DNA from: Escherichia coli
Lineage (GTDB): Bacteria; Pseudomonadota; Gammaproteobacteria; Enterobacterales; Enterobacteriaceae
Length of the DNA: 64,000 nt
NCBI RefSeq assembly: GCF_029227855.1
Contig: NZ_CP074356.1
Direction: 5' to 3' (one strand)
Part shown: one piece after another, positions 7,833-10,800 of the stretch
How the letters are laid out: the number at the start of each line of letters is the position of its first letter
How positions within the stretch are numbered: position 1 is the first letter of the stretch
Program-made: the position numbers

Positions 7833-10800
7833 TAGTTTGTAAACCGTCCGGCACTCAATCGCCAAAAAGAAATAAATATCCTCCGGCATAGCCGGAGGTT
7901 TTTCAAATGCGCCTATAAGGCTCTCTTACCAGCCGCGCCCTAACAGGCGCACACGATCTGACATTTGCATCCAACTTCGTTACTTACGGCCCGTAAACGG
8001 GCTGCCCGGATAGGGAATCGATAACTGCTCTCCCATTTTATCCTCTTCAAGCTGGTGCTTTATGTAATCCTGTATCTTCGCCGTGTTCTTACCCACTGTA
8101 TCGACGTAGTACCCTCTGCACCAGAACTCCCTGTTCCTGTATTTGAATTTCAAATCACCAAACTGCTCGTAAAGCATCAGACTGCTTTTCCCTTTCAGAT
8201 ATCCCATAAACCCGGATACGCTCATTTTGTGCGGGATCTCCACAAGCATATGGATATGATCTGCACAGCATTCAGCTTCCAGAATCCGTACGCTTTTCCA
8301 CTCACACAGCTTTCTCAAAATACTGCCTATTGCTCTACGCTTCTCTCTGTAGAACACCTGTCTTCGGTATTTTGGCGCAAAGACTATGTGATATTTACAG
8401 TTCCATCGGGTGTGCGCTAAGCTCTTTTCGTTCCCCATTGGGACCCCCTTTTGATTTCTTGTTTGACACTTGCAGTTGCCAGACCGCAAAGTGTTTTAAC
8501 AAATCAAAAGGGGTTTTAATAACTGGCTCAAAGCTGAAAGCTTTCCGGAACCCCCAGCCTAGCTGGGGGTTTTCTGTGCACAAAAAAGCCAGCAGATAAT
8601 CACTGCTGGCGTGGCGATTAACACCAATACTCAGTCACACATGATGTCCGCAAATCAGTAGCCAGAATGACTCCCCTCCCACTGCATCAGTTCTTCAAGC
8701 ATGGTTAATCGTTGTGGGACGCTTAACCAACGCAACCAGCACAACTTCGCTGTCGCGGTAAAATAGTGCTGATAAAACTGACGCATGGGGCACCTCCTTG
8801 CTTCATCGTTAGGAATTATTGACTTAATATAGGGAAAATAAAATTGCTGACTTTTGCGCAGGAGTTCCCCTTTTATGCCATCTGCTCGTCTGCAACAACA
8901 GTTCATCCGCCTGTGGCAATGCTGCGAGGGTAAATCGCAGGACACGACGCTCAACGAACTGGCAGCGTTATTGAGCTGCTCGCGTCGTCATATGCGCACC
9001 CTGCTCAACACCATGCAGGATCGCGGCTGGCTGACGTGGGAAGCGGAAGTCGGGCGCGGCAAACGCTCGCGTCTGACATTCCTCTATACCGGGCTGGCGC
9101 TTCAGCAACAGCGAGCAGAGGACCTGCTGGAGCAGGATCGTATCGATCAACTGGTGCAACTGGTTGGCGACAAAGCGGCCGTGCGGCAAATGTTAGTTTC
9201 TCATCTGGGCCGTAGCTTCCGCCAGGGGCGGCACATCCTGCGCGTTCTCTACTATCGTCCGTTGCGTAATCTGCTGCCCGGCAGTGCATTGCGTCGTTCC
9301 GAAACCCATATCGCCCGGCAAATCTTCAGTTCGCTAACGCGCATAAATGAGGAAAATGGGGAACTGGAAGCGGACATCGCCCACCACTGGCAGCAAATTT
9401 CACCGCTTCACTGGCGTTTCTTTTTGCGTCCAGGAGTCCATTTTCATCATGGTCGTGAACTGGAAATGGACGATGTGATCGCCTCTTTAAAACGAATCAA
9501 TACGCTGCCGCTCTATTCGCATATTGCTGACATTGTGTCGCCGACGCCCTGGACGCTGGATATCCATCTCACGCAACCGGACCGCTGGTTACCGTTACTG
9601 CTGGGGCAAGTTCCGGCGATGATCCTGCCGCGCGAATGGGAAACCCTCAGTGACTTTGCCAGTCATCCCCTCGGCACCGGTCCGTATGCGGTGATCCGCA
9701 ACAGCACCAATCAACTGAAAATTCAGGCATTCGATGACTTCTTCGGTTACCGGGCATTAATCGACGAAGTTAACGTCTGGGTTCTGCCGGAAATTGCCGA
9801 CGAGCCAGCCGGAGGGCTGATGCTAAAAGGGCCACAGGGCGAGGAAAAAGAGATTGAAAGCCGCCTGGAGGAAGGTTGCTACTATTTACTGTTCGACAGC
9901 CGCACCCATCGCGGGGCGAATCAGCAAGTCAGGGACTGGGTAAGCTATGTGCTTTCTCCAACTAATCTGGTCTATTTCGCTGAGGAACAGTACCAGCAAC
10001 TGTGGTTCCCGGCTTATGGACTGCTCCCACGTTGGCACCATGCTCGTCCGACACATTGCGAAAAACCCGCCGGGCTGGAAAGCCTCACCCTGACCTTTTA
10101 TCAGGATCATATTGAGCATCGAGTGATTGCCGGGATCATGCAGCAGATTCTGGCAAGTCACCAGGTCACGCTGGAAATCAAAGAGATCAGCTACGATCAG
10201 TGGCATGAAGGAGAGATCGAGAGCGATATCTGGCTTAACAGCGCCAACTTTACGCTGCCGCTGGATTTTTCGCTGTTCGCGCACCTGTGCGAGGTGCCGC
10301 TGCTCCAACACTGTATTCCGATCGACTGGCAAGCCGACGCCGCCCGCTGGCGCAATGGCGAAATGAATCTGGCGAACTGGTGCCAGCAACTGGTCGCCAG
10401 TAAAGCAATGGTGCCACTTATCCACCACTGGCTGATCATTCAGGGGCAACGCAGTATGCGCGGTCTGCGTATGAACACCCTCGGCTGGTTCGATTTTAAA
10501 TCAGCGTGGTTTGCGCCGCCGGATCCAGAGTAGCTTGTGCCTTTTGGCGGTCATGAGCGCGTTTTTTATATTCAGACGGAATGAATAAAATACATTACTT
10601 TTATATTTTCTCTGTTTTATGCATCGTCTGATTAGAGTCGCAAATAAGATTAAAGAAGGGGCAATCCAGCCCCTCTTTCATATTCTGAGTTAATCAATAA
10701 CGGCGCAGCCTAGCCGTGTTCTGGCCGGAAAGGTCAGCTTTTTCAGGTTAACCTCGCGCAGGTCAGTCATACCAACGGCTATTGTTCGTTTCAGCATTGC

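Follow-up and report, generated by a model that had tools for sequence, protein, structure and literature searches.

The stretch analyzed here, referred to as the window, comprises 64,000 nucleotides of the Escherichia coli contig NZ_CP074356.1 (assembly GCF_029227855.1) and harbors, between leuD and sgrR, the gene of the small RNA (sRNA) SgrS, the terminator of which is directly adjoined by a copy of the insertion sequence (IS) IS200C. SgrS was placed on the minus strand by a full-length match to Rfam RF00534 (8807..8581, 228.2 bits at a gathering score of 37, model positions 1-232), and its gene, a B2-type allele of 227 nt, spans 8581..8807. Further hallmarks of SgrS are the divergent activator gene sgrR (8875..10533, plus strand; open reading frame (ORF) list and annotation in collinear genomes), the embedded small ORF sgrT (8655..8786, minus strand; annotated at the same coordinates in the collinear strain JNEC-KY178), and the conserved base-pairing or seed block CAUCAUGUGUGACUGAGUAUUGGUGU (8621..8646, minus strand), which is unchanged among the window, strain 144 and K-12 (alignment A1). 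A small hairpin, UGGUG-UUAAU-CGCCA, lies directly 5' of the terminator (8612..8626, minus strand) in both the minimum free energy (MFE) and the centroid folds; K-12 has an analogous GGUG/CACC hairpin of different sequence at this place. On the other side, leuD (7230..7835, plus strand) is convergent with sgrS according to ORF list, annotation, and K-12 layout. The gene setA, which in K-12 is co-transcribed with sgrS in the order sgrS-setA-leuD, is absent from the lineage of the window; in setA-less strains free of the IS, sgrS and leuD are convergent and only about 60 bp apart (window 7836-8580 versus K-12 77594-78847). This setA-less leuD-sgrS junction occurs in 2,144 of 5,426 complete E. coli genomes. 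Over the sgrS region, the window shows 100% identity to LR778147 and to JNEC-KY178, which is collinear with the window over at least 30 kb, and 99.1% identity to CFT073. An origin from Salmonella, suggested by the missing setA and the presence of IS200, was rejected on the basis of these identities.

The gap between sgrS and leuD is occupied by IS200C (7871..8582, minus strand, 712 bp, 5'-TGTGCAC...GGATATTTATT-3'), which has the orientation of sgrS and carries the same label in the annotation of collinear genomes. Its ends were delimited by comparison of occupied and empty sites and by an alignment of four copies (A2), which share the termini TGTGCAC... and ...GGATATTTATT in different contexts. 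Subtraction of the empty from the occupied site leaves the IS alone at three sites, namely sgrS and araD/polB in the window and polB/araD in CFT073. A start at the G at 8581, giving an element of 711 bp, was rejected as the general boundary, since the four-copy right end reads ...TATT and the polB-side copy of CFT073 fits its empty site only if the IS begins with T (712 bp). The CFT073-type sgrS copy is one T shorter, i.e., 711 bp.

The element has the layout of the IS200 group, with a length of approximately 0.7 kb, no terminal inverted repeats, subterminal hairpins, a stem-loop region in the 5' untranslated region (5'UTR), and a single tnpA gene. The left-end hairpin AACCCCCAGCUAGGCUGGGGGUU (IS nucleotides 12-34; 8549..8571, minus strand; exact match, free energy (dG) -18.0 kcal/mol) starts 11 nt past the SgrS U-tract, and its position as well as the overall layout agree with the published map (PMC4513863). 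The tnpA 5'UTR/art200 region (STnc490) was found at 8448..8571 on the minus strand by a full-length match to Rfam RF01405 (144.6 bits). tnpA itself (7980..8438, minus strand) encodes a Y1 HUH transposase of 152 amino acids (Pfam Y1_Tnp PF01797, E = 6.3e-37, residues 11-129), named IS200C family transposase in RefSeq. The right-end hairpin CCTCCGGC-NNN-GCCGGAGG (7880..7898, dG -14.8 kcal/mol) is terminator-like on both strands, with the tails AUAUUUAUU in the direction of tnpA and UUUUUC in the direction of leuD. The Rfam match to STnc490 runs in the sense of tnpA; in published descriptions, however, art200/STnc490 lies antisense to the tnpA 5'UTR. Any art200 made here would be transcribed towards sgrS and would use as terminator the left-end hairpin read on the plus strand, with the tail UUUUCUGUG; read-through would therefore run antisense into the SgrS 3' end.

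At the junction itself, the minus strand reads GCCAGCAG-UGAUUAU-CUGCUGGC, UUUUUU, G (8581), UGCACAGAA, AACCCCCAGCUAGGCUGGGGGUU, without any spacer. The first part is the SgrS terminator hairpin (8588..8610, minus strand), which was detected as a terminator-like site and folds as a hairpin with a stem of 8 bp, 6 GC pairs, and a 7-nt loop, followed by the tail TTTTTTGTGC in the terminator scan. As a GC-rich hairpin followed by a U-run it has the composition of an intrinsic terminator, at which transcript release is predicted. Its dG amounts to -14.1 kcal/mol, compared to -12.6 kcal/mol in K-12. The U6 tract follows at 8582..8587 (minus strand), and position 8582 doubles as nucleotide 1 of IS200C. 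The Rfam placements and the sequence thus bear out the sequence-only reading, according to which the left end of IS200 abuts the SgrS terminator with six U, then G, and the IS at once. One refinement is required: because nucleotide 1 of the IS is the T at 8582, as set by the four IS200C copies aligned with empty sites, the last U is formally IS-derived, within a homopolymer ambiguity of the insertion point of up to 3 nt of T.

Strain 144, which has an identical sgrS and no IS, shows the state before insertion. Its minus strand reads ...CUGCUGGC UUUUUU C UUUUU GGCG, such that the empty site is GGC-T6-C-T5-G and the occupied site GGC-T6-GTGCAC...TATT-T-C-T5-G. Comparison of both sites puts the entry point of IS200C between T5 and T6 of the sgrS T-run, with no target duplication. 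As the first base of the IS is T, the transcript still ends in the hairpin and U6, and the uninterrupted U-run comprises six residues in the window allele with and without the IS. Nissle 1917 and ATCC 11775, which have CFT073-type flanks and lack the IS, also show T6. The change is limited to positions 7 onward, where CUUUUUG becomes GUGCACA and C-U5-G is replaced by GUGCACAGAA; the IS-free tail is thus hairpin + T6-CTTTTTG and the occupied tail hairpin + T6-GTGCACAGAA followed by the left-end hairpin. The displaced distal part of the sgrS tail, T-C-TTTTT, now lies 712 bp 3' of the terminator (7864..7870, minus strand; occupied versus empty site). Promoter, sgrT, seed, small hairpin, terminator hairpin, and U6 of SgrS are all as in the IS-free sister strains. 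A shortening or alteration of the U-tract by the IS, as implied by the sequence-only reading, is therefore not borne out, given that hairpin and U6 are no different in IS-free strains that share this sgrS sequence. Among the observations that would speak against it, that reading had named a 3' region and U-tract like those of IS-free strains together with an IS starting further away; the former was found, while the IS starts immediately.

The same reading had noted that sgrS seems to differ from K-12 between the seed region and the terminator. Alignment A1 shows this difference to be real. The K-12 terminator is CCAGCAG-AUUAUAC-CUGCUGG with U8, the bases of the small upstream hairpin differ as well, and a second divergent stretch lies between the sgrT stop and the invariant seed. 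Because the IS-free strain 144 has the window allele, this divergence reflects allelic variation and is no consequence of the insertion. At an identity of at least 99%, the window allele is found in 1,778 of the 5,426 complete genomes, while 3,241 fall into the band of 90-95% identity that includes K-12. The differences between K-12 and the window thus represent a widespread natural allele unrelated to the IS. An identity of 88% between the SgrS sequences of K-12 and CFT073 has already been reported by Horler and Vanderpool (2009), whose analysis of CFT073 sgrS does not mention the IS; the RyfA paper, consulted for SgrS in CFT073, contains nothing relevant.

The IS200-sgrS junction was identified in 13 of the 5,426 genomes: four CFT073 assemblies, JNEC-KY178, LR778147, SCU-176, an O158:H23 strain, GF131, JNE25-003, two E166 assemblies, and EH01-18-04-A. 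In a MAFFT alignment of the flanks, the window and JNEC-KY178 type matches the IS-free strain 144 and differs from CFT073 at 7842, 28 nt from the right end, and at 8662, 80 nt from the left end. The IS copies of JNEC-KY178 and CFT073 show no difference over 711 positions. The window copy deviates by two private substitutions (8230 and 8382), which are absent from every other copy compared, and the window is therefore not identical to JNEC-KY178. The substitution at 8230 changes Pro to His in TnpA (EIPPKMS to EIPHKMS), a few residues past the HUH motif, and the other is synonymous; judged from this change, the transposase of the sgrS-adjacent copy may be altered. The right-end junctions read TATTT-C-T5 in the window (7868-7870), TATT-C-T5 in CFT073, the O158:H23 strain and E166, and TATTT-C-T4 in EH01-18-04-A. 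These variants, which differ by single T/A bases, may stem either from homopolymer slippage or from separate insertion events. Since the junction occurs on different flank haplotypes, the simplest reading is that the same sgrS T-run was likely hit at least twice independently, and three further haplotypes could represent additional events or old divergence.

A position right after a hairpin and T-run is not peculiar to the sgrS copy. Four other E. coli strains have IS200C after yeaH, mepM, carB and a hypothetical gene, and the window has a further copy after araD; at all five sites, the IS follows directly upon a hairpin and T-run in the same orientation. A scan for the 23-nt left-end hairpin in one genome per species yielded at least 120 stretches, from Y. 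pestis IS1541, Vibrio ruber, Mailhella/Desulfovibrio, Oxalobacter, a Bacillota metagenome-assembled genome (MAG), Brenneria, Edwardsiella, and others. A hairpin ends at most 10 nt before IS nucleotide 1 in 109 of 122 unique, non-tandem IS200-group left-end flanks (89%), which include E. coli sites along with the matches listed, mostly at a stem-to-IS distance of 2-6 nt. Among T-rich pentamers of the same DNA, a hairpin precedes in this way only 16% overall, and 27% if the count is limited to pentamers outside long ORFs. Along this line, the mean MFE of the upstream 40 nt is -18.1 kcal/mol as against -6.1 kcal/mol in controls (Mann-Whitney p = 1e-63), and the five bases just 5' of IS nucleotide 1 have the consensus T-T-T-t-T. 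Two flanks consist of the right end of another IS copy, which is itself a hairpin followed by AUAUUUAUU, and tandem IS1541 copies are seen in Y. pestis (L074, L075, L077, L121).

The pattern agrees with the rule of the family, by which integration into single-stranded DNA places the left end 3' of a tetra- or pentanucleotide specific for the element (PMC5027513). The association with an adjacent hairpin is an addition to this short-motif rule, and the tendency itself is already known: a preprint describes terminator-like sequences as enriched upstream of ISs, most strongly for IS200/IS605. The abutment of sgrS and the IS is far beyond chance and follows a strong target preference of the IS200 group; IS200C probably sits at the sgrS T-run because IS200-group elements home to a T-rich pentanucleotide directly 3' of a terminator-like hairpin. 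Terminator-like stem-loops were reportedly proposed as hot spots of IS1541 in Yersinia pestis by Odaert et al. (J Bacteriol, 1998). Two further ideas were dropped. A replication-strand bias towards the lagging-strand template agrees with the sgrS copy and the CFT073 copy at the araD/polB hairpin and not with the araD copy of the window, among three sites; and for an assignment of the guide by analogy to IS608 (A-G-A-A versus the TTTtT target), the pairing register is not resolvable from sequence alone. The 23-nt left-end hairpin is kept exactly in Enterobacterales, Vibrio, Oxalobacter, Desulfovibrionaceae (Mailhella), Bacillota, and in Saccharibacteria and Elusimicrobia MAGs, while the 11 nt preceding it vary among lineages, with retention of A-G-A-A beside the hairpin.

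For SgrS, we favor a near-neutral outcome, to which we assign a probability of roughly 0.7: most SgrS would end at its own terminator, and the net functional effect would be small. IS200C, a member of the IS200/IS605 family with its single-strand 'peel and paste' transposition, would have entered the T-run that encodes the SgrS U-tract, the target strand being the one that reads hairpin, then T-run; transposition of the sgrS-adjacent copy via single-stranded DNA is itself presumed from family membership. Most SgrS should then terminate on the unchanged hairpin and U6, with a 3' end of ...U6 or ...U6G(U) instead of ...U6C(U). A polymerase that reads through would meet the IS200 left-end hairpin 11 nt past the U-run. 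The sequence-only reading had suggested that this hairpin may act as a terminator, and published work documents termination in both directions at this hairpin, with about 85% of impinging transcripts being stopped (PMC4513863, PMC5435999). Because the hairpin is a known terminator against impinging transcription, the read-through product is expected to be a short, 3'-extended by-product that would not bind Hfq, and not long transcription into tnpA. Read-through amounts to about 50% for K-12 sgrS in normal growth and to only a few percent under glucose-phosphate stress, and the 3'-extended products do not bind Hfq (PMC4509938). tnpA would stay silent through its further layers of repression, which include repression of translation (PMC4513863). 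Effects on termination or Hfq binding of SgrS are plausible and would probably be modest, the worst to be expected being a modest drop in termination efficiency or an altered 3'-end composition. As hairpin and U6 are unchanged, little or no phenotype is most likely.

Several points weigh against this interpretation. The distal tail has become less T-rich, with a T-tail score of 5.39 without and 4.50 with the IS, compared to 5.3-5.7 in K-12, where the score is a d'Aubenton-Carafa-style heuristic. Terminators of Hfq-binding sRNAs typically have at least 7 T, and shortened poly(U) tails abolish Hfq binding (PMC5558911); the U6 allele may thus be near the functional limit even without the IS, in which case the exchange of C-U5 for a G at +7 could have a larger effect than supposed. 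The rarity of the insertion (13/5,426) is compatible with mild counter-selection. Concerning the target preference, the hairpin criterion behind the 89% is lax, a single Y. pestis genome contributes about half of the sites, and the enrichment could partly reflect the survival of harmless insertions instead of targeting.

The lower T-tail score, the poly(U) requirement, the rarity of the junction, and the leaky K-12 terminator with its Hfq-free read-through product are also the arguments for the alternative that the IS materially damages SgrS. Here, GUGCAC in place of C-U5 would weaken termination and alter the 3' end (e.g., ...UUUUUUG(U)), many transcripts would be 3'-extended to or past the left-end hairpin or would be poor Hfq binders, and strains such as CFT073 would show an attenuated response to glucose-phosphate stress. 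We consider this unlikely, and grant it some weight since the allele has no more than U6 even in its natural state and the insertion made the distal tail less U-rich. About 2,100 IS-free genomes have exactly this hairpin and uninterrupted U6, the hairpin slightly exceeds that of K-12 in strength, and the insertion persists in several diverged lineages with sgrS, sgrT, and sgrR intact, all of which speaks against such damage.

A second alternative does without any targeting mechanism: IS200 would enter any T-rich site, only harmless insertions would survive, and the position would reflect selection and chance. In its favor, DNA between convergent genes offers neutral landing zones, IS608-type elements require just a short single-stranded target motif (PMC5027513), and intergenic T-runs are often terminators. 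Nevertheless, the noncoding control reaches only 27%, which argues that selection alone is insufficient to explain the 89% of hairpin-adjacent left ends, and the tight stem-to-IS distance points in the same direction. Moreover, individual hairpins have served as targets more than once and on either strand, as the window and CFT073 show at araD/polB, and IS copies enter right after the hairpin and T-rich right end of another copy, as in tandem IS1541. We therefore regard selection without targeting as improbable.

Similarly improbable is a co-option of the IS as a regulatory module, either as a two-way insulator that, through its right-end and left-end hairpins, stops leuABCD read-through antisense across sgrS or, in a variant, as a link by which SgrR-driven sgrS read-through feeds the IS200 5'UTR and tnpA and ties IS200 RNAs to sugar-phosphate stress. 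In favor of it, IS-free setA-less strains have no terminator-like site in the leu direction between the leuD stop and sgrS (the only hairpin there being that of sgrS, followed by GUGGCG), the IS supplies a hairpin with UUUUUC in this direction (T-tail score 3.75), and in Salmonella a regulatory sRNA arises by processing of the IS200 5'UTR (PMC5435999). Against it, the junction is rare and shows no expansion, the left-end hairpin and translational repression stand between incoming transcription and tnpA, and the sgrS-adjacent copy even has a private missense change in TnpA. That the IS, with two hairpins in the leu direction, could shield sgrS from antisense read-through is speculative.

Returning to the near-neutral insertion at a preferred target, SgrS is the textbook case of an sRNA that binds Hfq through its terminator hairpin and poly(U) tail, and the insertion is carried by the model uropathogen CFT073. 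If the changed distal tail altered termination or Hfq loading, regulation of sugar-phosphate stress would differ between CFT073 and its close IS-free relatives, such as Nissle 1917, which provide a ready natural comparison. Furthermore, the data show at nucleotide resolution that the landing site of IS200-type elements is the end of a terminator T-run, which is then restored by the first base of the IS; therefore, such insertions should usually be harmless and the same terminators struck repeatedly. The sgrS insertion is an ordinary instance of a known, under-appreciated habit of IS200 to land on terminators. A more far-reaching reading is doubtful, namely that IS200-group transposases recognize intrinsic terminators structurally, resulting in recurrent homing at terminators, including those of Hfq-dependent sRNAs, with effects on SgrS. 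If it holds true, the hairpin and T-run in single-stranded DNA would resemble the right end of the element itself (hairpin and AUAUUUAUU), each insertion would trim the U-tract to about 5-6 and add an IS terminator, sgrS having been used at least twice independently, and the outcome could be a measurable attenuation of SgrS or a coupling of SgrR-induced read-through to IS200 RNAs in CFT073-like strains.

The second IS200C of the window (21241..21952, plus strand) conforms to the same rule of hairpin and T-run as the sgrS copy, since it follows the hairpin AACCAGGC-uauaaucaa-GCCUGGUU and T-run 3' of araD. It ends only about 15 nt before the GTG start of polB (21967), and this exact junction is found in 1 of the 5,426 genomes (JNEC-KY178). 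In CFT073 (NC_004431.1 66292-68989), IS200C is located on the other side of the araD/polB hairpin in opposite orientation with the target ...GCCTGGTTTCGT|T, at a site equivalent to about 21200-21240 of the window, where the IS is on the araD-distal side. Thus, one bidirectional hairpin was targeted from both strands in different lineages. A LexA-box-like sequence, CTGTATAAAACCACAG (21188-21203), lies upstream of the second IS200C; with terminator hairpins at both ends, the IS therefore separates polB from the presumed SOS promoter. Beyond the IS copies, a 189-amino-acid ORF annotated as the type III secretion system effector EspY2 (10763-11332, minus strand) is located between sgrR and the thiamine pyrophosphate riboswitch/thiB. 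Strain 144, JNEC-KY178, and an O158:H23 strain share this ORF, which CFT073, E166, and EH01-18-04-A lack. The gene espY1 maps to about 28467-29213.

Among known systems, the closest is IS1541/IS200 in Yersinia pestis, which belongs to the same element group and has the same left-end hairpin. Its insertions just 3' of genes by terminator-like hairpins, as reportedly described by Odaert et al., are reproduced at nucleotide resolution by the present scan of a Y. pestis genome. In contrast to IS1541, the target at sgrS is the terminator of an Hfq-dependent regulatory RNA whose U-tract is itself functional, and the exact entry point between T5 and T6, with IS nucleotide 1 restoring the run, is defined by comparison with the empty site. 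The left-end terminator of IS200 (Beuzon et al. 1999, cited in Ellis et al. 2015, 2017; PMC4513863, PMC5435999) is identical to the hairpin at 8571..8549 of the window; that work concerned Salmonella IS200 and generic upstream transcription, whereas a strongly inducible sRNA promoter is located upstream here. The SgrS module of K-12 (Otaka 2011; Morita 2015, 2017; PMC4509938, PMC5558911) is the same gene with the same seed and the same order of small hairpin, terminator hairpin, and poly(U). It differs by U8, a G-U closing pair, and co-transcribed setA, while the window has U6, a G-C closing pair, no setA, and an adjoining IS200.

IS608 and ISDra2 (targets TTAC and TTGAT) resemble IS200C in that they insert without target duplication, with the left end placed 3' of a short motif specific for the element. 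Their targets are presumably read by a guide sequence that precedes the left-end hairpin (PMC5027513); in IS200C, A-G-A-A is conserved immediately before the hairpin, and the target is T-rich. An adjacent hairpin is not reported to be needed at IS608 targets, whereas IS200-group targets are overwhelmingly hairpin-adjacent. Finally, ISPpu9, which targets repetitive extragenic palindromic (REP) sequences (PMC8450116), also enters extragenic palindromes, where insertions generally do no harm to the host. Such ISs belong to other transposase families with other mechanisms and are directed to REP elements and not, as IS200C is at sgrS, to intrinsic terminators.

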